Shown: one piece after another, positions 2,757 through 29,580 of the stretch | How positions within the stretch are numbered: the first letter of the stretch is position 1 | Layout: each line of letters begins with the position of its first letter | Assembly: GCF_019464535.1 (NCBI RefSeq) | Contig: NZ_CP080507.1 | Span: 3,630,001 to 3,662,000 of the forward strand | Length of the DNA: 32,000 nucleotides | Direction: 5' to 3' | DNA from: Horticoccus luteus | GTDB lineage: Bacteria; Verrucomicrobiota; Verrucomicrobiia; Opitutales; Opitutaceae | The notes under the pieces: model-generated | Database searches by the model: none | Seen by the model: the letters and a program-made list of their open reading frames with translations, nothing else | Told to the model about the DNA's origin: nothing | Position numbers and translations under genes: made by a program

Positions 2757-4775
2757 TTAATCTGTCACGGTCAGCGGCGCCGCGGGCTGCGTTTTCGTCG
2801 TTTCGGGCGCGAACCGCCAGCTCTTGTCCTCCACCCACGCACTGTGATCGAAATTGCCGATCCACTCGCGTTCATGCGCGCGGCGGAAGCGGATCAACGC
2901 CGCCACCGCCTCGCGGCCGCGATCCGGCGTCGACTCTGGATCGGAGAGCGTCAGCAACCGCGCCGCCTGCACGCTGAGCTGCGCCTGCGTCAATCCGTCG
3001 CGCAGGAACTGCACGCGTGCGACCGCCTCCCGGTCGCCTCGCGCCGCCTGCGCCGCCTCGTCCAGCAACGCCTCCGCCGGACCGAAGCACTCGTCGGGAA
3101 AAATCCGGTGCGGCACTTTCGCCCACGTGCGCCAGCGCATGGCTTCGCGATCTTCAAACGCGCTGAAGATCAGCGGACGGTTGTCCATCGTGTAACGCTC
3201 CCAGTAATCGAAATACGCCTGCACCTGCCGGGCCGCCGGACCAAAGCCGCCGTAGTATTCTGCGAGCAGTTCATCGACTGGAGCGTCCGGCTCCGTGTGC
3301 AGACGCATCAACAGGTAGAGGGTCGGCCCTTGCACCGCCCACTGGCCCGTGAGCGAATCGAAGTCCGTGGCAACGCAACCATGGCGCACGGCGTGCTGAA
3401 AATCATCGGCGAACTGATGCGCGAAAATGAAGGGCATGTCGTAGCCGTCGAGAAAGTAGTCGGGGCGGAAAAACAGCCGCGCGCCCGTGCGGCTCCAGCC
3501 GTCCCATTGCGCCTTATACCAGGCATGCTCATCGTCGAATCGCGGATACCACCCCGCCGACGGACTGAAAGCGATCAGGATGTGCGAATTGAGCTGTACG
3601 CCCGACGTCGGCGGCTGGAAATAATTGAAATACGCATAGCCGATCGCGGTGACGTCCGGATTTTCCTTTGCCGCGAGCTGCTGCACCGCCAGCACGAAAC
3701 GCGCATAGCGGTCCGTCACAAAACGCGCCCCGTGCATTTTGAATTTCGGCAGGTAATACTTGTCCTTGTCCGGCGGCGGCGGCCCGTCCCAGGCCCGGCA
3801 GGCGTCGCATTCGCACAGGCCGAGAATATCGTTGTCCACTGCGTTGATGAAGCTCGGCAGGGTCCCCGCCGCCGCTCCGCCGCGCTTCTTCCACTGGGCG
3901 ACAATTTCGCGGTGCAGACCGGGGTTCGAGACGCACATCGAGAAACGCGCCCCCGGCGTCGCCGGTCCGCGTTTGCCATTCACCAATTGAAACCACTCGG
4001 GATGCGTGGCGCCGTATTTTTGCCACCACGTCTTGAACTCATCGTGGCCGTAACTGATCCGATAGCTGCGCCCCAGCCGGTGCCGGCGGAGAAAAACCTG
4101 CTGTTCCTGCGCGTAAGCCTGCGTCGCCGCCGGCGTGAATCCGAGCTCGGGGTGGTCGAGATCCTTCGCGAAGTTGAGTCCCGGCCGCACGTGACGCTGA
4201 AAGAATCGCGGCGCCATGGTCACATCCATCCGACCAAACTCGATCCGCTCGGCGCGCGGCACATACGTGCCAAGTTCGCCCGGCCACAGCCAGCGCACGC
4301 CTTGGGTGCGCTCCAGCCATTCATAAACACCAAACAGCGTGCCGGCCGATGTGCTCAAATCGAGCGGATCACCCGGCGCATCGCGGCCCGCGATGATCAA
4401 ACCCGCCGCCGTGCTGCGCACCGTGAAAGTTTCCACCGCCAGTTTCCGACCTTCGATCGCCGCCGCTCGCGCCGCCGCCGTATCTCCCAGAAAAATCAGC
4501 CTCGCGGCGAGTCCGCGCGCTTGCGCTTCATCCACCACCGGCGGCCGGTGGCCGGTCGCTTTTTCCAGGTGATAGGCGAGCTCCTGCGCTGCGTAACGCA
4601 CCGCTTCCGGACATCCAGCAGCAGTGACGATCGTCACCGCTGCGGCGGGTGCTGCCTCCGGGCGGTCATCCATCCGCGCAAGAGCCATCGCGGCTTCTCC
4701 CGAACCGCCGCGCGCGGCGCCGACGATAGCCAGGAGCGCGAGCGCGGACAGAACCTTCATCAGCGGTGCGCGCAT
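2757..4775 (-). CDS. DUF4838-type putative glycoside hydrolase, paralog P1
   Basis: Long ORF with a signal peptide (MRAPLMKVLSALALLAIVGAARG). Shared family blocks: VRYAAQEL.YHLEKATG, GTLFGVYEWLE...VRWLWPGELGT, HPEWFQLVNGKRGP, MCVSNP, NAVDNDILGLCECDACRAWDGP, FIFAHQFADDF, EWIGNFDHSAWVED. The ATG at 4775 shares one base with the sulfatase TGA (TGATG). GTG at 4778 or 4790 are alternative starts. The family name rests on recognition only. Confidence 0.7.
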   Translation of the reverse strand: MRAPLMKVLSALALLAIVGAARGGSGEAAMALARMDDRPEAAPAAAVTIVTAAGCPEAVRYAAQELAYHLEKATGHRPPVVDEAQARGLAARLIFLGDTAAARAAAIEGRKLAVETFTVRSTAAGLIIAGRDAPGDPLDLSTSAGTLFGVYEWLERTQGVRWLWPGELGTYVPRAERIEFGRMDVTMAPRFFQRHVRPGLNFAKDLDHPELGFTPAATQAYAQEQQVFLRRHRLGRSYRISYGHDEFKTWWQKYGATHPEWFQLVNGKRGPATPGARFSMCVSNPGLHREIVAQWKKRGGAAAGTLPSFINAVDNDILGLCECDACRAWDGPPPPDKDKYYLPKFKMHGARFVTDRYARFVLAVQQLAAKENPDVTAIGYAYFNYFQPPTSGVQLNSHILIAFSPSAGWYPRFDDEHAWYKAQWDGWSRTGARLFFRPDYFLDGYDMPFIFAHQFADDFQHAVRHGCVATDFDSLTGQWAVQGPTLYLLMRLHTEPDAPVDELLAEYYGGFGPAARQVQAYFDYWERYTMDNRPLIFSAFEDREAMRWRTWAKVPHRIFPDECFGPAEALLDEAAQAARGDREAVARVQFLRDGLTQAQLSVQAARLLTLSDPESTPDRGREAVAALIRFRRAHEREWIGNFDHSAWVEDKSWRFAPETTKTQPAAPLTVTD

Positions 4776-6373
4776 CACGGATTTTCCCACGGATCCCTGG
4801 TCCGCCGCTGAAAGGCCGTGAGTTCAGCCATGAGCTGCTGCTTCACGGCCGCGTGACCGGGATCGTCGGTGAGGTTGTTCACCTCGTCCGGATCCTGCTC
4901 CAGATCGTAAAGCTCGTATTCGGGCCGATGCAGAAACGCGGCGACCGTGCGTTGGCCAAACATCCGCCGCTCGCTCTCGGCGCTCGGCAGCCACGTGGGC
5001 GTTTTCTCCTCCGTGTCCGGCCCACGCACCTGTTTCGGCGCCAGCACCGCGCTGATCCACGTCGACGACTCGACCAGATCCCGCGCGAGCGGAAACGTGA
5101 GCTCATGCGCGAGGTTGTGAATCAATTTGTAGCGCGGCGTCCGGATGACGCGCATCGGGTAATACATCGTGATTTGATGAAACGTGTGCGAAGCAAAGAC
5201 CCGGTCCCATCCCGCCAATGCGCCACCATCCAAGCCCGCGCGAAACGATCGGCCGTCGAACTGCTTCTCGTCGTAGGCCACGCCCGCGACGTCCAGCACC
5301 GTCGGCGTCAGGTCCGCCCACGAGACCATCGCCGACTGCAGCGCTCCCGGGTGTTGTCGGCCCGGTGCCCGCACCAGCAACGGCAGGCGCATCCCGGGTT
5401 CGTAGAGCGTCGTCTTCGAGCCAGGAAACGCCGGCCCGTTGTCCGAAAGGTACAGAATCAACGTGTTCTCGTACTTCCCCGCGGCCTTCAGCACGCCGAT
5501 CAGTTTGCCGACGCCCTGGTCCAGGCGCGCAATCGACTGGTAATACTGGGCCAGTTCAAGGCGCGTGGCTTCGTTGTCGGGCAAATACGACGGCACGACC
5601 ACGTCCTCCGGACGAAACGCGACGGGCGTCACGCCCGGATAACCCTGCGGCCGATTGCCGAAGCTGTTGGGATTCGGATACGTCTTGAAAGTCGGCTTCC
5701 CGTCCGGACGAAACGCGTTCGAGCGATGCGGATCGTCGGTCGCGTAATAGAGAAAGAACGGCCGGTCGTCCTTCGCCTCGATCACGCCGCGCGACATTTC
5801 CGCCATCTCCACCGGGCTGCGCCCGATCGTCTTCGGATCGTTCGCGTGCCCTTCCGAGAGCACGGTTTGAAACGCGAACACCTTCTCTGGCGCGATGTGA
5901 TACTTCCCGATGCGCGCCGTGCGGTAACCGGCTTCCGCCAGGATCACCGACAAACTGCGGACACTGTCGAAGCTCTGAAAGTGATGCTCGTCGTGCTGCA
6001 AGCCATACATGCCGTTATGGTGACTCTGCAGCCCGCTGAGAATCGTCGCGCGCGACGGACTGCAACTGGCCGTCGTGCAAAACGCCGCGGTGAAGCGCGT
6101 GCCGTCCGCCGCGAGTGCGTCGAGATTCGGCGTGCGCACCACCGGATTGCCGTAGCATCCCAGCCCATCGGTGCCGTGATCGTCCGCCACGATCATCACG
6201 ATGTTCGGGCGAGCGGGCGCCGCGGCCGTCGCCGCGGGTTCCGCCGCCGCACCGCAGCCTGCCAGCAGCGCCGCTCCGAGCACCGCCCCCCGCCACCCTA
6301 GGGCGACGGCCGGTCTATTTTGCGGTCGCGGCAATATACGCGCTGAGTTGTTCGACATGATGGTTGAAGACAT
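4775..6373 (-). CDS. formylglycine-dependent sulfatase, N-sulfoglucosamine sulfohydrolase (SGSH/sulfamidase)-like, probable lipoprotein
   Basis: NIVMIVADDHG...CSPSRATILSG (C-x-P-x-R at 6050..6064), followed by LQSHHNGMYGLQHDEHHFQSFDSVRSL and DDRPFFLYYATDDPHR. These closely resemble the SGSH-type blocks I recall. Lipobox LLAG|C at 6254..6256. The start is uncertain: TTG 6382, ATG 6373, ATG 6358 or TTG 6334, and all of them overlap the upstream gene's 3-prime end. Confidence 0.88.
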   Translation of the reverse strand: MSSTIMSNNSARILPRPQNRPAVALGWRGAVLGAALLAGCGAAAEPAATAAAPARPNIVMIVADDHGTDGLGCYGNPVVRTPNLDALAADGTRFTAAFCTTASCSPSRATILSGLQSHHNGMYGLQHDEHHFQSFDSVRSLSVILAEAGYRTARIGKYHIAPEKVFAFQTVLSEGHANDPKTIGRSPVEMAEMSRGVIEAKDDRPFFLYYATDDPHRSNAFRPDGKPTFKTYPNPNSFGNRPQGYPGVTPVAFRPEDVVVPSYLPDNEATRLELAQYYQSIARLDQGVGKLIGVLKAAGKYENTLILYLSDNGPAFPGSKTTLYEPGMRLPLLVRAPGRQHPGALQSAMVSWADLTPTVLDVAGVAYDEKQFDGRSFRAGLDGGALAGWDRVFASHTFHQITMYYPMRVIRTPRYKLIHNLAHELTFPLARDLVESSTWISAVLAPKQVRGPDTEEKTPTWLPSAESERRMFGQRTVAAFLHRPEYELYDLEQDPDEVNNLTDDPGHAAVKQQLMAELTAFQRRTRDPWENP

Positions 6374-7904
6374 TGCTGCCAATGTAGCGGAAGCCCTTCT
6401 TGAAATTCGGCTGGCCCACCAATTTTGAGCCGTCGTGCGTCGTGATCCAGCGCCCCTGGTCGTCGAGCGCCGCGATGATCCGTTGCACGTCCGGCGCCAA
6501 CTCCTCCGCCGTCGCTTCCTGGCCGGCTACGCGGGCGACCGCGATCAGTTTGCCCGCTTCCGTGAACGTCTGGCCGTCGACCACTTTGGCGGCGCCCGGT
6601 TGATCGATGGCCGCAAACTCCGCTGCGAGTTCATTGATGCTCGACGGTTGTTTCCACCCGTAGTGCTTTGGCAGGTCTTTGTCGCTGTAGGTCAGGTCGT
6701 AGTAGCCGGGAGCGTTCGACGAGCCGCTCACGCCCGGTTTGCGGTTCATGTAGAGCGGCCGGTTGGTCTCGAGTTCGCGGTAGCGCGGCATGCGGCCGTC
6801 CGGCAGGAGGCACGTTTGCAGATAGGCAATCGCGCGCGGCAACGGCGCCAGATACTTCCGGTCCCCGGTGACCCGATAGATCTTCATCAAGGTCTTCACG
6901 GCGTCTTCCGACTCCAGGCCGCATACGGCCGGGGGCTCAAACTTCCGCGCCCACGTGGGCTCCATGTTGAAATTGTATTGCTGGCACCACGCCGGTTGCG
7001 GCTCGGGCATTTGCGCCAAAATCAAAAAGTCTCCCAACCGCGCGAGCGCCTGCTTGTAGCGCTCGTCGTGGTAGGTCTCGTAGGCAAGCAGCAGCGCATC
7101 CGAGACCGTGCCCACCAAGCCGTCGTTCAACGTGTAGTAGGTGTGATACGCCTCGTGCGGCCAAAGGCGCGGCCACTCCTTCGGGTAGTGCGCCTTGATG
7201 ATGGGCTTGTTCGGCGCCGGCTCCTTCCAACCTTGCGGAAATCCACCGTTGGGAAACTGCGCCTGCAACAGGCTGTTCAACGCGAACAGGGTCACCTCGT
7301 GGATCTTCTCGTTCTTGAAGTCCAGCGCCTGGTCCAGCCGCACCATGAATTGGATCGCGGCCTGCGTTTGATCGTCGTCGAGCGACGAGTAGTTCATCCC
7401 ATGGCCCCGGCCGTTCCGATAGTCGCCGCTGCGGTCGCCCTTCGGGTTGAAGTCGATCGTTTGCCGCCATCCGCCCGACTTCAACTGACCATAGACCAAT
7501 GCCTGGCCAGTCTCCGTCGCCGCCTCCAGATAGAACGGGTCGTGCGTCGCGGCGTAAGCCTCCAAGTAGGCGCGCCCGACCGCCGGAGTGCCCGGCGGCT
7601 CCACCCAAACCTGATCACGCGTGCCCACGCCTTCACCCCAGCGCTCGCTCAAGTCCGGGGTGTAGAAATACGCGTAGCCGCCGTGCGAGGCGACTTGCGT
7701 GCGATAGAACGTCGCCGCGCGCTTGAGCGCCGCCGTCGCTTCGCTGCGCAAATCCCGCGGCGCCTCGGCCGCCGACAAGGCGGCCGGCAACACCGCGGCC
7801 AGACCCATTCCCACTAACGCCGCTGCTCGCCACCGGCGCGCGGTCGGCACGCTGTCGTGCGCTTCTTTTCCGTCATTCGTTTCGTGTTTCATCATAAAAG
7901 TCAT
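6315..7904 (-). CDS. PL10-like pectate lyase / alpha-alpha toroid polysaccharide lyase
   Basis: The track ORF runs to 8465, but that part overlaps P2 out of frame. The sensible start is the ATG at 7904 (MTFMMKHE...RRWRAAALVGMGLAAVLPAALSAAEA, signal-like), which shares one base with the P2 TGA. The blocks SLDDDQTQAAIQFM, QFPNGGFPQGW, YTLNDGLVGTVSDALLLAY and WCQQYNFNMEPTWARKFEPPAVCGLESEDAVKTLM resemble the Pec_lyase (PL10) consensus as I remember it. Confidence 0.6.
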   Translation of the reverse strand: MTFMMKHETNDGKEAHDSVPTARRWRAAALVGMGLAAVLPAALSAAEAPRDLRSEATAALKRAATFYRTQVASHGGYAYFYTPDLSERWGEGVGTRDQVWVEPPGTPAVGRAYLEAYAATHDPFYLEAATETGQALVYGQLKSGGWRQTIDFNPKGDRSGDYRNGRGHGMNYSSLDDDQTQAAIQFMVRLDQALDFKNEKIHEVTLFALNSLLQAQFPNGGFPQGWKEPAPNKPIIKAHYPKEWPRLWPHEAYHTYYTLNDGLVGTVSDALLLAYETYHDERYKQALARLGDFLILAQMPEPQPAWCQQYNFNMEPTWARKFEPPAVCGLESEDAVKTLMKIYRVTGDRKYLAPLPRAIAYLQTCLLPDGRMPRYRELETNRPLYMNRKPGVSGSSNAPGYYDLTYSDKDLPKHYGWKQPSSINELAAEFAAIDQPGAAKVVDGQTFTEAGKLIAVARVAGQEATAEELAPDVQRIIAALDDQGRWITTHDGSKLVGQPNFKKGFRYIGSNVFNHHVEQLSAYIAATAK

Positions 7905-9886
7905 CAGTTCGATTGGTTGCTCTTCGCGGCCGGCCACACCCAACTCGCATCCTCGATCCACGCGGAGTGATTGAAGTTGCCGATCCATTCGCGCTCGTGC
8001 GCGTGGCGAAACGCCGCCAGCTCGGCCAATGCCGCAGCGCCGCGTTCCGGCGTCGCGTGCGGATCCGCGAGCGTGAGCAATCCCGCCACCCGTGAGCAAA
8101 GTTTCGCCTGCACCAGCCCCAGCCTTAAAAATTCCACGCGCTGCGCCGCTTCCGCGTCGTCCTTCACTGCCGCCGCGGCCGCCGCGAGCAATCTTTCCGC
8201 CGGCGTGAAGGAGGCCGCGGGAAATACCTCGTGCGCCACCTTCGCCCACGAGCGCCAACGCGAAGCCTTCATGTCGTCGAACACGGCACTCGTGTGCTCG
8301 CGCTGCGTCACCACATACGCTTCCCAATAGTTGAAATAAGCCCGCACCTCCGCCGCCGCCGCGCCAAACGCCCCGTAATACTCCTCCAGCAGGCGGTCCG
8401 CATCTTCGTCCGGTCGGGTCTGCAGCCGCATCAGCAAGTAGATGTTCGGCCCCTGCGTGCTCCACTGTCCCGTGAGGGCATCGTAGTCCGTCGCGACCAT
8501 TCCTGTGCTCACCTGGAACTTGAATTCGTCGGCGAACTGATGCGCATACACGTAAGGCATGTTATACCCGTCGAGACAGTAGTTGCCGCGCGAAAACAGC
8601 TTCGCGCCCGTGCGCGCCCAGCCCTGCCATTGACGGCGAAACCATTCGTTCTCCTCCGGCGAGCGCGGATACCAGCCGGACGACGGATACGATCCGACCA
8701 GAATATGGTCGTTCAACGTGATCGCCGCGGACGGAAAATAATAATAATTGAAGTAGTTATAGACGACGAGTGTGACGTCCGGGTCGGTCTTGCGCGCCTC
8801 CGCCTGCACCGCCAGCCAGAACTTCGCGTAGCGATCCGTCACGCAATGCGAACCCATCATTTTCGACGTGCGGGCGTAGTAATCGAGAAAGTCATCAGGC
8901 TGCGGTCCGTCGAGCGCTCGGCAATTATCGCACTCGCACAGGCCCATGATGCCGTTCTCGACGGCGTTGAGATAGTGCGACGCGGCGGAGCCATCCTTCG
9001 CTCTGCGCTCCCGCCACAATTCGACGATCTTGTGCTGAAACTCCGGATTCGAAACACACATGGAGTAACTCCGGCCCGGAGCCGTCGGCCCGCGCTTGCC
9101 GTTCACCAACTGAAACCACTCCGGGTGCTCGGCTCCGTATTTCTCCCACCAATCGGTGAAGGCATGCCGATAAGTCAGGTTCTTCGCGCGCCCCATCCGG
9201 TGCCGGCGCAGATACACGGCCTGCGCGTGCGCATAATCTTCCAACGCGCCGGGCGAAAAGCCCATCGTCGGGTGTTCGCTCTTGAACGTCAGGCCGCCAC
9301 GCACTTGCCGTTGCACGAAGTGCGGCGCGCGGATCGCGTCGGGCACATCGGCAACCACGGTGGCATGAATCGGCACGAACGTGCCCAGTTCGCCCGGCCA
9401 GAGCCAGCGCACCTGCACGACCTCCTCCAGCCACTCGTAAACGCCAAACAAAGTGCCCGCCGCTACGCTCACATCGAGCGCCTCGCCGCCTTCGTCGGAG
9501 CCCGCGATCACAAACCCGTCGGCCACTGCGCGGAAGGCAAATGCTTCGCGCGCCAGTTGCTGCACGTCAATTCCCGCGCCGCGCGCCGCCTGCGTGTCGC
9601 CCACGTAGAGCCGTGCGCCTCCCGCCGGCATTTCCCGGCCTTCGCGGACCACGGTTAACGTGACACCTGTCGCGCGCCGGATATGATACACCAGCTCCTC
9701 GGCGGCGTAGCGGCTCACTTCATTCGGTTGCGCCGGGAGCACCACGAGTGCCGGCGGTTCTCCCGCTTTCACCACCGTCAGCGGCCGCCCAAAGGCCGCC
9801 CCGCACCACGCCAGCGCCACGAGCCCCATAAGGGCCCAGCGCGACGTCCGCGAAAACCAGCCGGCCCTCTTGGCGCCCGTGCTCAC
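7904..9886 (-). CDS. DUF4838-type putative glycoside hydrolase, paralog P2
   Basis: The GTG start at 9886 overlaps the P3 TGA (GTGA). Signal peptide ...WALMGLVALAWCGAAFG. Same family blocks: GTLFGVYEWLEEVVQVRWLWPGELGT, HPEWFQLVNGKRGP, MCVSNP, NAVENGIMGLCECDNCRALDGP, YVYAHQFADEF, EWIGNFNHSAWIED. Confidence 0.7.
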   Translation of the reverse strand: MSTGAKRAGWFSRTSRWALMGLVALAWCGAAFGRPLTVVKAGEPPALVVLPAQPNEVSRYAAEELVYHIRRATGVTLTVVREGREMPAGGARLYVGDTQAARGAGIDVQQLAREAFAFRAVADGFVIAGSDEGGEALDVSVAAGTLFGVYEWLEEVVQVRWLWPGELGTFVPIHATVVADVPDAIRAPHFVQRQVRGGLTFKSEHPTMGFSPGALEDYAHAQAVYLRRHRMGRAKNLTYRHAFTDWWEKYGAEHPEWFQLVNGKRGPTAPGRSYSMCVSNPEFQHKIVELWRERRAKDGSAASHYLNAVENGIMGLCECDNCRALDGPQPDDFLDYYARTSKMMGSHCVTDRYAKFWLAVQAEARKTDPDVTLVVYNYFNYYYFPSAAITLNDHILVGSYPSSGWYPRSPEENEWFRRQWQGWARTGAKLFSRGNYCLDGYNMPYVYAHQFADEFKFQVSTGMVATDYDALTGQWSTQGPNIYLLMRLQTRPDEDADRLLEEYYGAFGAAAAEVRAYFNYWEAYVVTQREHTSAVFDDMKASRWRSWAKVAHEVFPAASFTPAERLLAAAAAAVKDDAEAAQRVEFLRLGLVQAKLCSRVAGLLTLADPHATPERGAAALAELAAFRHAHEREWIGNFNHSAWIEDASWVWPAAKSNQSN

Positions 9887-11901
9887 GGATAATACTCCGG
9901 TTCCTGCTTGGTTTCCCGCGAGAGCTTCCAGCTCGGATCTTCCACCCAGGCGTCGTGATTGAAGTTACCGATCCACTCCATCTCGTGCGCACGGCGAAAC
10001 GCGAGCAGCGCTTCGAGCGCCTTCTGCCCGCGTTCGGGCGTCGATGCCGGTTCGGCCGTCGTCAGCAACGCCGCCGCCCGCGCGCTCAGCTTCGCGTGCT
10101 CGAGTCCGTCCTGGAGAAACGTCACGCGCGCGCGCGCCTCCGCATCGCCCGCCGCCGCGGCGGCCGCTTTGGCCAGCAACGCCTCGCCCGGCGCAAAACA
10201 GTCCGGCGGAAACACCCGGTGCGCCGCCTTCGCCCACGTGCGCCAACGAATCGCCACGCGATCGGCAAACACGTCGTTGATCAACGGCCGGTTGTCCATT
10301 GTGTAGCGTTCCCAGTAGTCGAAATACGCCTTCACCTCCGCCGCGGCGGGACCAAAGCCCGAGTAGTATTCCGCCAGCAACGCGTCCGGATTCGCCGTCG
10401 GCGCCGTGTGCAGCCGCATGAGCAGATACAAGTTCGGACCCTGTGTGCTCCACTGTCCCGTCAACGCGTCAAAGTCCGTCGCGATGATTCCGTTGCGCAC
10501 CGTGGATTGGAAATCGTCGGCGAACTGATGCGCAAAAATGAACGGCATGCAGTAGCCATCGAGGAAGTAATTCGGCCGGAAAAACAACCGCGCCCCGGTA
10601 TCGTGCCACCCTTGCCATTGCGCTTTATACCAAGCGTGCTCGTCGTCCATCCGGGGATACCACCCGGCGGACGGACACAGTCCGATCAGGATATGCGGGT
10701 TGAGTTTCACGCCCGACGTCGGCGCCTGGAAATAGTTGAAATACGCATAGCTGATCACCACGGCGTTGGGGTTGTGCTTCGCCGCACGCTGCTGCACCGC
10801 GAGGGCAAATCGCGCATACCGGTCCGACACGAAGCGAGCGCCATACACCTTGAAATTCGGCAGGTAGAACTTGTCCTTGTCCGCCGGCTGAGGTCCATCC
10901 CACGCCCGACACTCGTCACATTCGCACTGGCCGAGGATGTCATTTTCCACCGCGTTGACGAAGCTCAGCCGCCCCTTGCGATCCGCTCCGCCATGCGCCA
11001 CCCACTGATCCACGATCTGCTGCTGCAGGTCCGGATTCGAGACGCACATGGAGAAACGCGCACCCGGCTTTTCCGGCCCGCGCTTGCCGTCGACCAGTTG
11101 AAACCAGTCGGGATGCTCCGTGCCGTAGTTATTCCACCATTGGGTGAACGCGTGCCCATACGTCATCTTCGTGCTTTGTCCCAAACGATTGCGGCGGAGG
11201 AAAACGGTTTGGTCCTTCGCATACGCCGCTGCCGCCTTCGCCGTGAAGCCGAGCGCGGGATGCTCGTTCTTGAAGGTCAGTCCCGGCCGCACCCGGCGTT
11301 GGATGAAGCTCGGCGCCACGGTCGCATCGACCGCCGGCACCGCCAGCCGGTCCGACTTCGGCACGAAGGTGCCCAGCTCTCCAGGCCACAGCCAGCGCAC
11401 GCCCACGTCGCGTTGCAACCACTCGTAAACACCAAACAACGTGCCCGCCGACGTGTTGTTCTCGAGCGGATCACCGGCACTGTCGTTGCCCGCAATAATC
11501 AGCGCATCGTCCGCCGTGCGCAGCGTGAACACTTCGGCCGCCAGCGTTTTCACATTGATCCCCGCCGCGCGCGCCGCCGCAGTATCGCCGAGATAAATGC
11601 GGCCGCCGGTGGTCTTTTTCGCGGCTGACTCCGTGATCACGGGCAGCGTCGCGCCCGTCGCCTTCTCAAGGTGATAGACGAGTTCCTGCGCCGCGTAACG
11701 CACCACCGCCGAAGGGTGATTGGGCGTCACGATCACTGCCGCGGGTTTACCCTCGTCGGCGACCACCCATTCCGCGCGCGACGAGCCCACGCCCGCCGCA
11801 CCCACCCCGATCGCCAGGGCCGCGCGGAGCCATCCGCCGATCGGCGACGCACGTCGTTCGCGCCGCTGTGTTGTCCGCAAAGCGTCATTTCGCATGTTCA
11901 T
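9883..11901 (-). CDS. DUF4838-type putative glycoside hydrolase, paralog P3
   Basis: I place the start at the ATG at 11901 (MNMRNDALRTTQRRERRASPIGGWLRAALAIGVGAAGVGSSRA). A GGAGG lies 7 nt upstream, and the ATG overlaps the GH31 stop as ATGA. Family blocks as in P1. By hand count, 39 mismatches to P1 in a 187-aa block (about 79% identity). Confidence 0.72.
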   Translation of the reverse strand: MNMRNDALRTTQRRERRASPIGGWLRAALAIGVGAAGVGSSRAEWVVADEGKPAAVIVTPNHPSAVVRYAAQELVYHLEKATGATLPVITESAAKKTTGGRIYLGDTAAARAAGINVKTLAAEVFTLRTADDALIIAGNDSAGDPLENNTSAGTLFGVYEWLQRDVGVRWLWPGELGTFVPKSDRLAVPAVDATVAPSFIQRRVRPGLTFKNEHPALGFTAKAAAAYAKDQTVFLRRNRLGQSTKMTYGHAFTQWWNNYGTEHPDWFQLVDGKRGPEKPGARFSMCVSNPDLQQQIVDQWVAHGGADRKGRLSFVNAVENDILGQCECDECRAWDGPQPADKDKFYLPNFKVYGARFVSDRYARFALAVQQRAAKHNPNAVVISYAYFNYFQAPTSGVKLNPHILIGLCPSAGWYPRMDDEHAWYKAQWQGWHDTGARLFFRPNYFLDGYCMPFIFAHQFADDFQSTVRNGIIATDFDALTGQWSTQGPNLYLLMRLHTAPTANPDALLAEYYSGFGPAAAEVKAYFDYWERYTMDNRPLINDVFADRVAIRWRTWAKAAHRVFPPDCFAPGEALLAKAAAAAAGDAEARARVTFLQDGLEHAKLSARAAALLTTAEPASTPERGQKALEALLAFRRAHEMEWIGNFNHDAWVEDPSWKLSRETKQEPEYYP

Positions 11902-14330
11902 CGTTTGTCCTCCGTCGTCGCTGCCGGCGCCCACGTAAGGCTCACCGCTCCGGCCGCGCCGCTGTTATGCTTCCGCACCCAGATATTCCGTTTCGTGGCG
12001 TCGTAGAACCAACCTTCGCCGCCGGCCTGAAACGCAGCCAGCGTGTCGAACGCCGCCAATTTCGCTCCATCCGCGGTCACGCTCACCGGCCGGTGCGCAT
12101 CGGCGTCGTGGATGCGCAGCAGATGGTTGCGCTTCGTCGCGTCCCAGCCCACGACGAACGCGTTCGCCTGCCGGGCATCGGTCGTGATCCGCACCGGTCC
12201 TTCGGTGTCGTGCAACACGAATTCGCTCTGCCCGCCCGCCTTCGGCCAGATCGCCAAGGTCACGTAGCCCTTTGAGGCGGCCGTGCCAAACCCCGTCACG
12301 TCGTTGGCGATCTCCATCGGAATGATGGCTCCTTCGCGCACGAACAACGGAAACTTGTCCTTCACAAACCAGCCCTTGAACCAGTCGATGGTCACCGGGC
12401 CTTGGTAGCTCTCATTTTCATCCCAAAAATCGAACCAGCGCCCCGCCGGCAGGTAGACCTTGCGGTCCGGATTCATATTGAGCATCGGCGCCACCAGCAG
12501 CGAGGTGCCCACCGTAAACTCGTCATCGACCCGCCACGTGGCCATGTCGTCCTGAAACGACCACACGAGCGGCCGGCACACCGGCGCCCCCGTGGCCGCG
12601 GCTTCATGCGCGAGACTCATCCACAACGGGGTCAGATCCGTGTGCAGCCACGCGAGGTAGCGGAAGTGTGTTTGCGCTTCCTCCGAATACCACCACGGCA
12701 TGTGCAACGTCTGCATCCCGGGGAGCATCGCGCCAAACTGGGCCCACCGCAGCCAGGCGTCCTCCGGCGCGGGTTGATTCTCGAATCCGCCGATGTCCGT
12801 CGAAAGAAACGGCAGGCCGCAGAACGCCAGCGAGAGCGACGAATACACCGACGACGGCAGGCCGTTGTTCGCGAACGACCCCGCGAGGTCGCCCGGCCAC
12901 TTGAAATTCGTGTAGGCTCCCGAACCGACCCACGCCGCGCGCGGCACCATCAAAAAATCGTCGCCCAACCGCTTTTGCAGCGCTTCGAAAAACACTTTGT
13001 TAAATTCCAACGCATACGAGTTGTGGACGTCGCGCCCCTCGCGGCCGCCGAACAACCGCGCATCTTCCGGCAAATCCTGGCCGGCATCGAGTTTGAAGCC
13101 CGCCAGACCGAGATCGAGAGCGCGATCAATCTGCGCCTCCCACCATTTCGCCGCCGCGGGATTAAAGAAGTCGATCGCGTTGTAGTATTTTCCTTCGAGT
13201 TCGCCCGAAGCCGTGATCTTCACGTCTCCGCCGCTCGTGTCGCCATCCGGCTTTTGCGCGAGATAGCCCTTGGCCACCGCCTCTTTCCAATTGGAGGCTT
13301 TGTCCGTCGTATACGGCACCGTCCACGCCAGCGAACGGACGCCCTTGGCCCGCAATTGCGCGATCAATCCTTTCAGATCCGCACTGAACGCGGGATTCGG
13401 TTTAAACGACGACCGCGCATCCTGCCACGGTGGCTCAAACCAAGTCGCGCCGATCGGTAGGCCCATCGCGTGCAGCTTATCGACCATCTCAATGAAATGT
13501 TCTCCCTTGAGCGTATCGATCTTCGCGCCCGGCTGGCTGGGATCGGCCATCAACCAGAACCAGGGCTGAAACGTCCAGCGCGGCGGCCGTTGCGGCAAAC
13601 CCGCCTCGGTGAGAAAATGCCGCACGGTCGTGGCGATGCTATCGCCCGCGACGAAGGTGAGATCGAGTTCGCCGGCGGGTGCTTCGTAGGTGAGCTGGTC
13701 CGCGCGGCGTTGCCCCACGTCGAAATGCACGCGCCCGCCGTAGTTCAGCAAAAATGCGTAGTTTCGCGTCGAAACGTAATACGGCATATACGCGCATTCA
13801 TCCGGCGTGCCGCCGATGTCCCACAAATCAAACGCCTGGCCGCGCTGCGCGACGTGGCCATTCCACATCTCCCCGAAGCCGTAGATTTCTTCCATCGGGT
13901 GCAACATCGTCGCCCCGCGCACGCCCGTGACGCCGCCGTCCGCCGCCCGCACGATCACGCGAAACCCGTTCGCACCATACGGCCGCACTTCGGCCGTCGC
14001 GCGCGCCCCGTTGGCGAGGCTCGCCGCCACCCGCACGACGTCCGCGGACTCCGCCTTTGCGCTGTCGGCACGGGCCAATGCCACCCACGCGTCGCCGATC
14101 TTCAGCGCCGGCGCGTCCGCGTCCGCGACTCGTGTTTCATCGTGCGCGGTGGCGATCCGCAGCCGCCATGGTTCGCGCTCGATGATGAGCACGGTTTCCC
14201 CGTTCGCACAGCGAAAGTCGTGCGGACTTTCCGTCAGCGTGATTCCCGCCCACACGTGCCCCGCGCTCATCAGGCCGGCGACGAGCCACCACGCCTGCGC
14301 GAACCAGGATTTCTTCATTCGTTGCTTCAT
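11898..14330 (-). CDS. glycoside hydrolase family 31 (alpha-glucosidase/alpha-xylosidase type)
   Basis: The ATG at 14330 overlaps the GH36-like stop (ATGA). Signal peptide MKQRMKKSWFAQAWWLVAGLMSAGHVWA. GH31 signatures: GFKLDAGQD (nucleophile region), FKWPGDLAGSF, LPFLSTDIGGF (acid/base region), WLRWAQFGAMLP. Confidence 0.85.
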   Translation of the reverse strand: MKQRMKKSWFAQAWWLVAGLMSAGHVWAGITLTESPHDFRCANGETVLIIEREPWRLRIATAHDETRVADADAPALKIGDAWVALARADSAKAESADVVRVAASLANGARATAEVRPYGANGFRVIVRAADGGVTGVRGATMLHPMEEIYGFGEMWNGHVAQRGQAFDLWDIGGTPDECAYMPYYVSTRNYAFLLNYGGRVHFDVGQRRADQLTYEAPAGELDLTFVAGDSIATTVRHFLTEAGLPQRPPRWTFQPWFWLMADPSQPGAKIDTLKGEHFIEMVDKLHAMGLPIGATWFEPPWQDARSSFKPNPAFSADLKGLIAQLRAKGVRSLAWTVPYTTDKASNWKEAVAKGYLAQKPDGDTSGGDVKITASGELEGKYYNAIDFFNPAAAKWWEAQIDRALDLGLAGFKLDAGQDLPEDARLFGGREGRDVHNSYALEFNKVFFEALQKRLGDDFLMVPRAAWVGSGAYTNFKWPGDLAGSFANNGLPSSVYSSLSLAFCGLPFLSTDIGGFENQPAPEDAWLRWAQFGAMLPGMQTLHMPWWYSEEAQTHFRYLAWLHTDLTPLWMSLAHEAAATGAPVCRPLVWSFQDDMATWRVDDEFTVGTSLLVAPMLNMNPDRKVYLPAGRWFDFWDENESYQGPVTIDWFKGWFVKDKFPLFVREGAIIPMEIANDVTGFGTAASKGYVTLAIWPKAGGQSEFVLHDTEGPVRITTDARQANAFVVGWDATKRNHLLRIHDADAHRPVSVTADGAKLAAFDTLAAFQAGGEGWFYDATKRNIWVRKHNSGAAGAVSLTWAPAATTEDKR

Positions 14331-16641: not shown

Positions 16642-17970
16642 TCAATACTCGACCTCCTGACGGTAGGCGGCGAGCCACGCGTCCACTTCGGCCGAAGTTT
16701 CCGGCACCACTAATTTCCGACGCGTAGGCGCGTAGTCCGGATAACCGCCGACCTCATCCTGCGAATCGATCACCCGCCCCTTGCGCGCGAGGTAGTCGTT
16801 GACGATGCGTTGATCGACGCGATCGCGGTCTTTCGGGCGCGCCCCGGCGTTCTTCAACACGAACGCCTCTGTCAACGCCACCGGCAGCGGGGTGAAACCC
16901 TTCGGTTCAAGCATCGGTTGATCGACCACGGTCACTTCGGGCACGATCTGGCTGCGTTCGGTCGCCACCGCTCCGTCCCAGAGCAGTTCGCCATCTTTAC
17001 CGTAAACGCGGCTGTCGCGCTGATACAATTTGGCGGTGCCCATCACCGCATCCTTCGAACACGTAAACATCTTCAACCCCGCGTGGGTCGACGCACCCAT
17101 CCGATAGAGGTTGGCGATCGCGGTCATTTGCGACGGGAGCATCGGATCGGAAATCACTTTATATTCGTCGGGCACCCAGGCGAAGTGGATCGCACCGTTG
17201 CCCGGATCATAGATCACGTTGTTGGCCATGAACACCGTGGTGTTGGGCTTTAGATACGGATTCCGATTGTAGTCATGCGCGTAAAGATTCCCGACAATCG
17301 CCACGTCATGCGTGAAGTCATGGATCAACGTCCCCTTCGAATGAGGTCCCTTCGGGTGCGTGGAATTATTCAACGCCTCCGCGATGATGCAGTTGCGAAT
17401 CGTCACGAAACTCGACGTGCCATTTTTGACGCGCGGACCCGAGACCGAGAGATTTTCGTCGATCGACCACGACGACGAGCAGTGATCGTAGAGGACGTTC
17501 TTCACCTTCGGCCCCTGCGTGGTCATCGAGTCCGGCTGCCAGCCCGCCTTCTTCAAGTCGCCGCCGTCGCCCACCCGCACGTGCAGGTGCCGCACGATCA
17601 CGTCGTGCGTCGATACCGTCAGGCTGCCGCGGACGATCGTGATGCCGGGTGACGGCGCCGTCTCTCCCGCAATGGTGACATCGCCATTTTCCAAGGTGAC
17701 CTCGTCGCCTTGCCAATCGATCACGCCACCGACTTCAAACACGATGATGCGCCGGCCCTCGGCCGCGAGCGCCGCCTTGAACGATCCGTCACCCTCGTGG
17801 GCCAGGGTCGTGACTTTGATCACGCGCCCGCCCCGCCCGCCGGGCGTATCGGCGCCGAAGCCGCTGAAGGCCATCGCGCTTCCGCCGGGCACCGTGGCCG
17901 GTTGCTGAGTCGCCGCGTGCAGAGGCAGCACCAGCCCGGCCGCGAGGGAGAAGAGGAGGAACGTTTTCAT
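16642..17970 (-). CDS. PL1-family pectate lyase (right-handed beta-helix)
   Basis: The ATG at 17970 overlaps the P4 stop (ATGA). Signal peptide MKTFLLFSLAAGLVLPLHA. FGADTPGGRGGRVIKVTTLAHEGDGSFKAALAAEGRRIIVFEVGGVI...VTIAGETAPSPGITIVRG...VIVRHLHVR and YDHCSSSWSIDENLS match the PL1 pattern G.GG.GG.v..VT.L.d.G.GSlR.A....pR.IvF.vsG.I...tIAGqTAPg.GI. Confidence 0.8.
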   Translation of the reverse strand: MKTFLLFSLAAGLVLPLHAATQQPATVPGGSAMAFSGFGADTPGGRGGRVIKVTTLAHEGDGSFKAALAAEGRRIIVFEVGGVIDWQGDEVTLENGDVTIAGETAPSPGITIVRGSLTVSTHDVIVRHLHVRVGDGGDLKKAGWQPDSMTTQGPKVKNVLYDHCSSSWSIDENLSVSGPRVKNGTSSFVTIRNCIIAEALNNSTHPKGPHSKGTLIHDFTHDVAIVGNLYAHDYNRNPYLKPNTTVFMANNVIYDPGNGAIHFAWVPDEYKVISDPMLPSQMTAIANLYRMGASTHAGLKMFTCSKDAVMGTAKLYQRDSRVYGKDGELLWDGAVATERSQIVPEVTVVDQPMLEPKGFTPLPVALTEAFVLKNAGARPKDRDRVDQRIVNDYLARKGRVIDSQDEVGGYPDYAPTRRKLVVPETSAEVDAWLAAYRQEVEY

Positions 17971-20063
17971 TTTGTCGATTGGTTCACCGCGATCCAAAAC
18001 GGCTGCTCGTTGCCGGTGCGCACCTCGCGCACGGACTCTTCCTCGCGCAGCCGTTCGGCGCGCATCCGCGCCGGCTCGGTGCCGAGCAGGCGCTCAAACC
18101 CGGCGTTGTCGGCATACGCGTTTTCAAGATAGAACAGGAGTTCCCAGTGCATATTGAGATCGAGACGATGCTGCCGGCGGAAATCATATAAGGCCTGGGT
18201 CGTCTGCTTTTTCTCCTCCGCTGAAGCCGTCGAGCCCACGCCATTCGCCTTCGTGGCGCGATAAGTGACCCGGCTGTGCTCGTTGGCCAGCACCAGCGTC
18301 TGCACCCGCGCGCGTTCACTGGCGGTCAGGTCCCGGCTGAGTGCTTTCTGCAGCAGCGCATCCGTCTGGTCGAAATCCTCTTCCCGATACATCAAGCCCG
18401 CGAGGTTCGCCATTTTGTTGCGCAATAGCTTCATGCCCGGCGTGAGGTCGGTGATGCGGTCGAGGTTGGGCATCACCCGATCGTTCCAGATCTGCTGCCA
18501 ATATTGCTGGTAGGCTTTTACGTCGTCGCGAGCGTTACCGTAAGTCCCGCAATATTCGTTTTCCCAATCCGCGAAAGAGCGCTCGGGCCGGTAAAAACCA
18601 CGCGCCATGATATAATTGGTCATGCCTGAAATCGGCCAGAAGCCCCAGCACGTATCATAATCCGTGCCCTTCATGTTGAGGTAGTGGTTGACAAGCTGAT
18701 AGTGGCCAAACATGTGCTGCTCAAAACCGAGCGGCAGACCCGTGTCCTGACACAGCGCATTGGTCCGCATATAAACATCCGTGGCATTGGCATTCTTCCA
18801 CCCGCGGACGTAGGCCTCCATCTCCGGCAGGGTTTCGGACAGATTCGGCAGCAGGAACGTAATCACGCCATCGTCCAGGCGCTCCCGCCGGGGCGGCTGA
18901 TTGTAGCGGCTGTAGGCATAGAACACCACGCGGGCCTTAGGATCGTAATGCGCGCGGGCTTCGCGGAGCACCGCGTTGGTGAAATGCACGTAGCGGTCGG
19001 TCAACATCCGGTCCTCGACGTCGAGATTTTCCTCGCCCGGCAGCAGCACATCGAGCGCCTGGCAGTCCGGACAACGGCAGAAATTGCGACTGTCGTTTTC
19101 GCAGGCATTGATGACCAGCCCGCCGCCCGCCGCGTAATGATCCTTCACGACCTGTTTGACCAACGCCGGATTGCTCACGCACATCTTCACCCGATCGGCC
19201 AGTTTCTCTGACGCCGGCCCGCGCTTGCCGTTTTTGCCGAGCGCAAAATATTCCGGGTGCGTCGCGCCATACTTGGCCCACCACTTCCGAAAGGCGTGGC
19301 CGTAGGTGAAATCGAGGCTGCTGCCCATGCGCATCCGCTTTTGCCAGACACGCTCATCCAACTGACGCGCCTCAAATTCCTTCGCGGAAAACTGCATGTC
19401 CTTCGGCACTTCGCCTTCCTTTAACGCGCGATCGCGGAGGTCTTCTTTATACGCGGTGCGCATGTGGCGTTGCACCAGTTGCGGCACCCACTGCCCCTCG
19501 CTCACCGGGAGCACCAGCACCTTTTGCGGCGTGTAGGTAATGCCGGCGAGACCCGGTTCGATCCAGTGCACCCCGAGGGCGTTCTCCAGAAATTCATAAA
19601 CGGCATACAGCGTGCCCGCCTGGGTCTTGCTCGCCATGGCGATGTCGCGCGCCGTGCCGCCGCCGCGAAGGGCCTTCTTGTTCACGGCATCCCGCCCATA
19701 CAAGAAAATGCCTTTCGGTGTGACGACCCAGCGCCCTTCCTCGACCTCGAGCGATGTCTTCACGTTGGGCGGGAGGAGCCCCACGCCGATCGGAAACTGT
19801 CCCGCTTGGGGGCGCTTCACCACGGGCACGTCGCAACCCGTGATCAACTTCAAGTGGAACTGCAGTTCCTCCACCGCGTAGTCGATCACCGCCGTTTTTT
19901 TGGCCGGCACCACGATGACGCAGCTCGACGGGTTGATCTTGATCGTGGGGTCTTCACTTTTCGCCCGCAGCGCGGTGGTTCCAAGCGAGATGGCTGCCAG
20001 CAAGCAGCACAGGAGTTTATTTAGAGAATTCACAGATATTGTATTGGGGTTGCCCGGTCGCAC
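17967..20063 (-). CDS. DUF4838-type putative glycoside hydrolase, divergent paralog P4
   Basis: GTG start at 20063, or GTG at 20033 giving (M)NSLNKLLCCLLAAISLGTTALRA. It keeps the family skeleton (GTLYAVYEFLENALGVHWIEPG, HPEYFALGKNGKRGP, MCVSNP, NACENDSRNFCRCPDCQALD) but differs at most other positions. The C-terminal EWIGNFNH..W.ED block is absent. GC content is visibly lower than in its neighbours. Confidence 0.65.
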   Translation of the reverse strand: MRPGNPNTISVNSLNKLLCCLLAAISLGTTALRAKSEDPTIKINPSSCVIVVPAKKTAVIDYAVEELQFHLKLITGCDVPVVKRPQAGQFPIGVGLLPPNVKTSLEVEEGRWVVTPKGIFLYGRDAVNKKALRGGGTARDIAMASKTQAGTLYAVYEFLENALGVHWIEPGLAGITYTPQKVLVLPVSEGQWVPQLVQRHMRTAYKEDLRDRALKEGEVPKDMQFSAKEFEARQLDERVWQKRMRMGSSLDFTYGHAFRKWWAKYGATHPEYFALGKNGKRGPASEKLADRVKMCVSNPALVKQVVKDHYAAGGGLVINACENDSRNFCRCPDCQALDVLLPGEENLDVEDRMLTDRYVHFTNAVLREARAHYDPKARVVFYAYSRYNQPPRRERLDDGVITFLLPNLSETLPEMEAYVRGWKNANATDVYMRTNALCQDTGLPLGFEQHMFGHYQLVNHYLNMKGTDYDTCWGFWPISGMTNYIMARGFYRPERSFADWENEYCGTYGNARDDVKAYQQYWQQIWNDRVMPNLDRITDLTPGMKLLRNKMANLAGLMYREEDFDQTDALLQKALSRDLTASERARVQTLVLANEHSRVTYRATKANGVGSTASAEEKKQTTQALYDFRRQHRLDLNMHWELLFYLENAYADNAGFERLLGTEPARMRAERLREEESVREVRTGNEQPFWIAVNQSTK

Positions 20064-29268: not shown

Positions 29269-29580
29269 GAGATCGCCGTTCGTAAGGGGTTGAAGGGATG
29301 GAAGACCACCGACCCCGATCCCGATTGCGAATCGTCCGGCAAATCACAACCGGGAAATCGCGCGGATCGCCGAGCTTCCGCGACCGCGCGCGACCTCGCT
29401 CACTGGCGAGATTCTCCGCGCAGATGATCCGCTAGCATTTTCGGTCGGATGACACAAAAGGCTGGCTCAATTCGGTTGTCTGCGCGTTCCGCCCTCGACT
29501 GAGTCCCCCGAAATCTATGGGCGAAACTCTCCGCCCTGCTCTGCCCTGCCCCCCACTTCGTCTCGCACGTTTTTCGCTTT
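29269..29580. promoter_or_regulatory. divergent intergenic region between the GH28-like gene and the repeat-protein gene (promoters inferred)
   Basis: A 312-nt gap between divergently oriented genes. It holds only short 4-5 bp stems, and no Shine-Dalgarno sequence precedes the ATG at 29581. Confidence 0.35.

Follow-up and report, generated by a model that had tools for sequence, protein, structure and literature searches.

A Four-Cysteine Cluster Beside the Putative Acid/Base Residue of DUF4838 Glycosidase-Like Proteins from Horticoccus luteus: A Probable Structural Metal Site

Introduction

Five related glycosidase-like proteins (P1–P5), encoded close to one another in the genome of Horticoccus luteus, share a small group of cysteines: a CxCxxC motif and, upstream of it in all except P5, a fourth cysteine. 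An earlier note on this DNA had drawn attention to the group, and it raises a simple question: do these cysteines hold a metal, form disulfides or serve the chemistry of the enzyme? Here, we address this question for a stretch of 32,000 nucleotides (positions 3,630,001 to 3,662,000 of contig NZ_CP080507.1), referred to in the following as the window.

The domain shared by the five proteins, DUF4838, is the catalytic domain of the CAZy families GH163 and GH185, whose founding members are BT1035, a surface endo-β-N-acetylglucosaminidase, and Sp_0475, a cytoplasmic 6-sulfo-β-GlcNAcase that uses substrate-assisted catalysis involving residues Q174, H227, D309 and Y436, respectively (PMC10570127). 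A 2024 paper described GH163 as having one Cys upstream of helix α3 and a CxCxxC motif downstream of strand β4, and reported the same type of cluster in GH42, where zinc was present in five of 11 solved structures. According to the same paper, GH185 retains the CxCxxC motif while the first Cys is absent, certain GH20 enzymes carry a Cys and a CxxC motif with zinc bound in crystals, and in all of these families the motif loop also bears the putative acid/base residue (PMC11776370). The core of what we report is thus already known; our analysis reproduces that description independently and extends it to an uncharacterized clade.

Results

The Five Paralogs and Their Genomic Setting

The positions of the five genes and their motifs were derived from the translated open reading frames by mapping each residue back to its codon, and are as follows:

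2757..4790, minus strand: P1, DUF4838 glycosidase-like gene (PF16126, 82.7 bits); ORF from a GTG at 4790, with the true start probably a few codons downstream
3933..3935, minus strand: P1 first putative ligand position, Cys286 (tgc), in M-C-V-S-N-P, just upstream of helix α3
3798..3833, minus strand: P1 N320-D321 (putative acid/base Asp), then C326-x-C328-x-x-C331; CECDAC at 3798–3815
7904..9886, minus strand: P2, DUF4838 paralog (PF16126, 78.9 bits)
9056..9058, minus strand: P2 first putative ligand position, Cys277
8921..8956, minus strand: P2 N311-G312 (Gly in place of the putative catalytic Asp), then C317-x-C319-x-x-C322; CECDNC at 8921–8938
9883..11934, minus strand: P3, DUF4838 paralog (PF16126, 100.6 bits); the database gene product begins at Met14
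11044..11046, minus strand: P3 first putative ligand position, Cys297 (residue 284 of the structural model), after a β-bridge and before helix 288–300
10909..10944, minus strand: P3 N331-D332, then C337-x-C339-x-x-C342, in the loop after model strand 311–314; CECDEC at 10909–10926
17967..20063, minus strand: P4, divergent DUF4838 paralog with ≈30% identity to the other four (PF16126, 71.0 bits)
19179..19181, minus strand: P4 first putative ligand position, Cys295
19062..19097, minus strand: P4 N323-D324, then C329-x-C331-x-x-C334; CRCPDC at 19062–19079
20097..22151, minus strand: P5, DUF4838 paralog (PF16126, 65.5 bits)
21258..21260, minus strand: P5 Ser298 (agc) at the first putative ligand position, with Glu at +3 (M-S-V-S-E-P)
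21123..21158, minus strand: P5 N332-D333, then C338-x-C340-x-x-C343; CECEGC at 21123–21140

Every coordinate that the earlier note had given for P1–P5 was reproduced in this way. Its motif strings need a small correction: the 18-base coordinates are right, but the seven-residue strings quoted with them (LCECDAC and so on) carry an extra leading residue that lies outside those coordinates.

All five proteins matched PF16126 above its gathering score of 26.6 bits. The sequence M-C-V-S-N-P is present in P1–P4, and the CxCxxC motif follows 34–40 residues further on, its leading Cys lying 40 residues after the first position in P1, P2, P3 and P5 and 34 in P4. When the five sequences were aligned, the three cysteines of the CxCxxC motif were invariant, despite the low identity of P4, whereas the other cysteines in each paralog showed no conservation. 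P1–P5 all begin with a hydrophobic leader sequence. The leaders of P3 and P5 contain paired Arg residues, and a Tat-type export signal was considered and rejected for a mismatch to the usual S/T-R-R-x-F-L-K motif.

The genome is a single 4.32 Mb contig, 100% complete, and contains eight matches to DUF4838, five of which fall inside the window. Among the three paralogs outside it, one has all four cysteines (CCCC), one has NDST at the four positions and has lost the cluster, and one (L002) has His at the first position with the CxCxxC motif, in the following called the knuckle, intact. The window itself is one long minus-strand gene cluster, in which the neighbors of the paralogs include a TonB-dependent receptor, two GH31-like genes and an SGSH-type sulfatase, as well as a PhoD-like phosphatase, a pectate-lyase-like protein, a GH28-like protein and a TonB C-terminal-domain protein. 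This neighborhood is a polysaccharide-utilization cluster. The closest database relatives of the paralogs come from other Opitutaceae (Opitutus, Nibricoccus and Oleiharenicola).

The Cluster Is a Hallmark of the DUF4838 Family

Conservation outside this genome was assessed in several sets of sequences. All 124 close homologs, with identities of at least 59%, carried the CxCxxC motif, and the first position was Cys in 117 and Ser in the remaining 7. A more distant set of 155 sequences with 33–74% identity, collected by exhaustively searching 1.8 billion cluster representatives, comprised 132 CCCC, 6 SCCC and 2 NCCC proteins; in about a dozen others, most or all of the four positions had been replaced together, yielding combinations such as NDSS and DSSS. 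We also fetched 78 loci from reference genomes by using patterns from the N-terminal domain that did not include the Cys motif, which made this sample unbiased with respect to the cysteines. These loci came from Verrucomicrobiota, Armatimonadota, Planctomycetota, Hydrogenedentota, Bacteroidota, Lentisphaerota, Alphaproteobacteria and others; the CxCxxC motif was kept in all 78, with Ser at the first position in five. The CCCC pattern was likewise found in 21 of 22 PF16126 ORFs from five genomes, including "core" members of the family that score ≈350 bits. In genomes of the Clostridia phylum, seven ORFs carried the cluster, and four of these have no signal peptide, the N-terminal domain being the very start of the ORF.

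Pooling gave 355 distinct proteins from many phyla, with 319 CCCC, 17 SCCC, 2 NCCC and 1 HCCC; in ≈16 others, most or even all of the cysteines in the cluster were missing at once. Wherever the other three cysteines stay intact, only the first position varies, being replaced by Ser, Asn or, in the same-genome paralog L002, His. The cysteine cluster is therefore a hallmark of the DUF4838 family and not peculiar to this genome, and the four-cysteine conservation that the earlier note had proposed to check in database homologs is borne out by 319 of 355 relatives. Its remark that such a cluster is unusual for an exported glycosidase-like protein is not supported, since the same cluster has been published for GH163, GH185, GH42 and part of GH20 (PMC11776370), and the founding member of GH163 is itself surface-localized. 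In practical terms, the cluster is a useful diagnostic signature of the DUF4838 barrel that marks the loop bearing the probable acid/base Asp; beyond annotation, its significance is slight.

Position of the Cysteines in the Predicted Barrel

An AlphaFold model of P3, built with 98 homologs, had a pLDDT of 93.9 and a pTM of 0.91. In the numbering of the model, the first Cys (284) lies between a β-bridge at residue 283 and a helix comprising residues 288–300, and the knuckle cysteines (324, 326 and 329) lie in the loop that follows the strand 311–314. The arrangement in the model is that of a GH42-type cluster, with one Cys directly upstream of helix α3 and a CxCxxC motif in the loop after β4, a few residues past the putative acid/base residue. 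As seen in the model, a DUF4838 protein starts with a GH20b-like domain at the N-terminus, continues with a (β/α)8 barrel and ends in a helical domain; overall, this architecture is GH20/GH115-like.

At the end of strand β4, an Asn-Asp pair precedes the knuckle by five residues. The Asp was conserved in 154 of 155 relatives, in P1, P3, P4 and P5 and in the core DUF4838 members, and it is probably the counterpart of the acid/base Asp of GH185 (D309). P2 has Gly at this position, a substitution that it has in common with three homologs at 58–61% identity. The P2 branch has thus kept the predicted metal site and lost the putative catalytic Asp.

We then compared the P3 model with known structures, using Foldseek and VIA-align. 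The best matches were GH115 (Z = 15.8) and GH67 (13.0), followed by GH20 (≈11) and by GH84 and GH89 (≈10). GH42 and the zinc-bearing GH20 barrels matched at Z = 8–10; at this level, however, many TIM barrels match, and structural similarity by itself is not enough to establish the site. When P3 and the family profile were searched against PDB chains, no solved relative was found, the only match being a weak one between the N-terminal domain and GH67; neither this search nor the fold search turned up a DUF4838 structure.

Relationship to the GH42 Zinc Site

A connection to a crystallographically characterized site came from profile–profile comparison. Aligned with hhalign, DUF4838 and GH42 gave a local match over 116 columns with a probability of 87.5% and an E-value of 3.6e-6, in a register that placed Cys297 of P3 on the first GH42 Cys, N331-D332 on the N-E acid/base pair and CxCxxC on CxCxxC. 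An independent set made up of core DUF4838 members aligned with GH42 in the identical register (E = 1.5e-6). Most of the score came from the cysteines (62 with Cys, 35 without), and when every Cys was masked in both profiles, the same register was still the top match, with E = 0.006; as a control, the reversed GH42 profile gave E = 0.5. DUF4838 also matched the GH20 profile (E = 5.7e-5, or 4.7e-9 for the core members), with the N-terminal domain and the first barrel half accounting for most of the match, while the GH42 and GH20 profiles did not match each other (E = 0.34).

The GH42 residues onto which the cysteines align are zinc ligands. In a Bacillus GH42 enzyme, a crystallographic Zn(Cys)4 site is formed by Cys113, Cys153, Cys155 and Cys158, beside the catalytic N147-E148 pair, and GH42 enzymes are trimeric (PMC8573354). 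The corresponding residues in the Thermus thermophilus A4 enzyme (1kwg), as read off an alignment, are C106, C150, C152 and C155, with E141 as the acid/base residue, and the cluster was carried by all 32 verrucomicrobial GH42 enzymes sampled. None of this makes the five paralogs members of GH42: P1–P5 gave no match to PF02449 (Glyco_hydro_42) at E-values up to 0.01, and the sole link is the local profile–profile match of ≈116 columns.

Variation at the First Position

The earlier note had singled out P5 as a natural variant in which Ser replaces the first Cys. The replacement itself, Ser298, is correct, but P5 is not special in this respect, as Ser occupies the first position in ≈5% of relatives and GH185 is reported to be without the first Cys. 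Among the Ser-first proteins, an acidic residue, either Asp or Glu, was enriched at +3, occurring in 9 of 17 Ser-first relatives versus 43 of 319 CCCC proteins (Fisher p = 2e-4, with relatedness ignored). This enrichment hints at a replacement oxygen ligand. The site in P5 and the other Ser-first relatives would probably combine three thiolates with either an oxygen ligand or water, a state that would have to apply to GH185 as well.

Between them, the paralogs in this genome display Cys, Ser with Glu at +3, His or no ligand at the first position, which is a convenient experiment of nature for asking what the site does. The part of our observations that is specific to this genome is modest, consisting of this series of ligands and the P2 branch with its Gly in place of the conserved Asp.

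Discussion

The cysteine cluster in the DUF4838 catalytic barrel most likely forms a structural tetrathiolate metal site, with Zn(Cys)4 as the likeliest form, and we would put the probability of this reading at roughly three in four. One ligand would be located at the end of strand β3, just before helix α3, and the other three in the CxCxxC knuckle, in the loop after β4 and five residues past the conserved Asn-Asp pair. The topology of the model, taken together with the GH42 alignment, suggests that the four sulfurs converge on one point. By tying the loop to the neighboring strand, the metal would fix the position of the catalytic Asp and stabilize the barrel, as reported for the GH42 site, and it would not be expected to take any part in the chemistry. 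The identity of the metal as zinc and its stabilizing role are what we infer from these comparisons. If correct, recombinant expression of these enzymes is predicted to need zinc and reducing conditions. For the DUF4838 family, any measurement of metal content would be a first. The buffers in the Sp_0475 study contained TCEP (PMC10570127).

The earlier note had left the choice open between a structural site for zinc or another metal and a disulfide pair. The first of these is the better supported, by the conservation of the cluster, the concerted loss of its cysteines and the alignment with the GH42 ligands. An even number of clustered cysteines in an exported protein is the classic pattern of disulfide bonding, exported proteins often use their cysteines in this way, and P1–P5 have the hydrophobic leaders of such proteins, so that two disulfides, or one disulfide and two free thiols, could staple the β4–α4 loop in the periplasm with no metal involved. 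We nevertheless consider this improbable. Variants of the SCCC, NCCC and HCCC types have an odd number of cysteines; the cluster is kept in members that appear to be cytoplasmic, namely the ORFs from the Clostridia phylum that lack a signal peptide; and the aligned site in GH42 binds zinc in crystals. Moreover, no match to DsbA, DsbB or VKOR was found in the complete H. luteus genome, whereas control genomes did yield matches, which also argues against disulfides.

A site for another metal or cofactor, such as Mn, Co, Fe or an iron–sulfur center, is likewise unlikely, although there is a precedent that has to be considered: related GH20 enzymes with a Cys plus CxxC were pale pink in solution, even after EDTA treatment, for which the authors' tentative explanation was manganese, so zinc may not be the metal in all cases. 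The coordination seen in crystals of these GH20 enzymes and of GH42 is nevertheless consistent with zinc, and Sp_0475, a GH185 enzyme, was reported to be colorless (PMC11776370). An iron–sulfur center would, we think, be hard to reconcile with Sec-type export of an unfolded protein. Coordination chemistry also favors Zn over Mn for a tetrathiolate site. The reading that we find least credible, and indeed very unlikely, is one in which a Cys acts directly in catalysis, as the thiol nucleophile does in GH127 and GH146, or serves as a redox switch of activity. Those two families do have Zn-Cys3-Glu sites in which a Cys is the nucleophile, and in DUF4838 no more than five residues separate the cluster from the putative acid/base Asp. 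Against this, relatives that lack every one of the four cysteines exist as intact ORFs, the key residues of GH185 are Gln, His, Asp and Tyr, with no Cys implicated (PMC10570127), and a GH20 enzyme without the cluster had comparable activity (PMC11776370). On these grounds, the iron–sulfur and catalytic-thiol readings were set aside.

The similarity to the GH42 site also invites a tentative idea about its origin, which we regard as doubtful: rather than having arisen by convergence, the module made up of a Cys before α3, N-[D/E] and then CxCxxC after β4 might be an ancient inheritance connecting DUF4838 (GH163/GH185) with GH42, in clan GH-A, as well as with GH20-like enzymes. The natural series of ligand states in the present genome, together with P2 and its missing catalytic Asp, would allow a clean test of the function of the predicted metal site in exported glycosidases.

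With the zinc site as the preferred reading, the five proteins can be compared with the known systems. GH163, typified by BT1035, is similar in having the same PF16126 domain, with one Cys before α3 and a CxCxxC after β4 by the putative acid/base residue. In contrast to the ≈350 bits of core members, however, P1–P5 reach only 65–100 bits with PF16126, suggesting that they constitute a separate clade, which has features of its own in a conserved A-W-D that follows the knuckle and in a helical domain at the C-terminus. GH185, typified by Sp_0475, shares the DUF4838 barrel and the CxCxxC motif and, by its description, resembles P5 in the absence of the first Cys, but Sp_0475 is cytoplasmic, whereas P1–P5 are exported. 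The GH20 subgroups with zinc, exemplified by TrdeGH20 (9fyl) and Niako3494 (8bal), whose barrels match the P3 model with Z = 9.9 and 9.0, respectively, have a cluster that is similarly placed, before α3 and after β4, beside the catalytic pair. They differ in that the cluster has three cysteines (Cys + CxxC), not four, and the catalytic pair is D-E, not N-D.

The closest counterpart of the cluster itself is the Zn(Cys)4 site of GH42, of which Thermus thermophilus A4 (1kwg) and Bacillus circulans (3tts) provide examples. GH42 belongs to a different family and clan, its acid/base residue is Glu where DUF4838 has Asp, and its members are cytoplasmic. The elements nevertheless follow one another in identical order and at similar distances: the first Cys precedes the acid/base residue by 35 residues in both P3 and 1kwg, and the knuckle follows the acid/base residue, after a gap that is 5 in P1–P5 and in the Bacillus GH42 enzyme, 9 in 1kwg and 3–9 across the GH42 enzymes seen.

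Variation at the four-cysteine cluster

P5, one of the five DUF4838 (PF16126) paralogs in the window, carries Ser298 at the first-ligand position of the putative metal site, and Glu301 (window 21249-21251) sits three residues further on (+3). Grouped by the residue at the first-ligand position and counted without regard to kinship, 9 of 17 Ser-form relatives have Asp or Glu at +3, versus 43 of 319 Cys forms. From these sequences, the acidic residue in Ser forms could be a compensating oxygen ligand.

Beyond the window, the genome encodes three more DUF4838 paralogs, at loci L001 to L003:

L002:1106-4372, plus strand, DUF4838 paralog
L001:551-3022, minus strand, DUF4838 paralog
L003:659-2695, minus strand, DUF4838 paralog

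One of them (1088 aa) has His at the first-ligand position, an intact CxCxxC and a long C-terminal extension; another has lost all four cysteines, which are replaced by N, D, S and T; and the remaining one has all four (CCCC) and resembles P4.

When the 100%-complete genome was searched for three families of disulfide machinery, DsbA (PF01323), DsbB (PF02600) and VKOR (PF07884), zero matches were found, and control genomes did match in the same search. Judged by gene content, the organism may not make periplasmic structural disulfides.

Substitution at the putative catalytic position in P2

The putative catalytic Asp, five residues before CxCxxC, is kept in 154/155 relatives. P2 has Gly at this position (residue 312, window 8951-8953), reading E-N-G versus E-N-D. 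Three database homologs, 58-61% identical to P2, share the Gly and retain all four cysteines. P2 may belong to a non-catalytic or differently catalytic branch.

Gene cluster

The cluster occupies window 272-31815 on the minus strand and encodes a TonB-dependent receptor, the five DUF4838 proteins, two GH31-like proteins, an SGSH-type sulfatase, a PhoD-like phosphatase, a pectate-lyase-like protein and a GH28-like beta-helix protein. Two large ORFs (16642-17997 and 29515-31815) had no Pfam match. Our guess at the substrate is a sulfated GlcNAc-containing glycan.

Relationship to other families

The N-terminal domain of the predicted P3 model (residues 42-165; roughly 11440-11808 in the window) superposes on the cell-wall anchoring domain of the S-layer protein from Methanococcus voltae (9fsa; 110 residues at an rmsd of 2.4 Å, Z 11.4), a match equal in quality to the one between this N-terminal domain and GH20b/GH67N-type domains.

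In profile-profile alignments, DUF4838 matched GH42 locally across beta3-beta5 (E about 1e-6), a segment corresponding to residues 271-395 of the P3 model (about 10750-11124 in the window), and its match to GH20 covered the N-domain together with the first part of the barrel (E 5.7e-5 to 4.7e-9). There was no match between the GH42 and GH20 profiles (E 0.34). DUF4838 looks like a sequence bridge linking GH42 and GH20.
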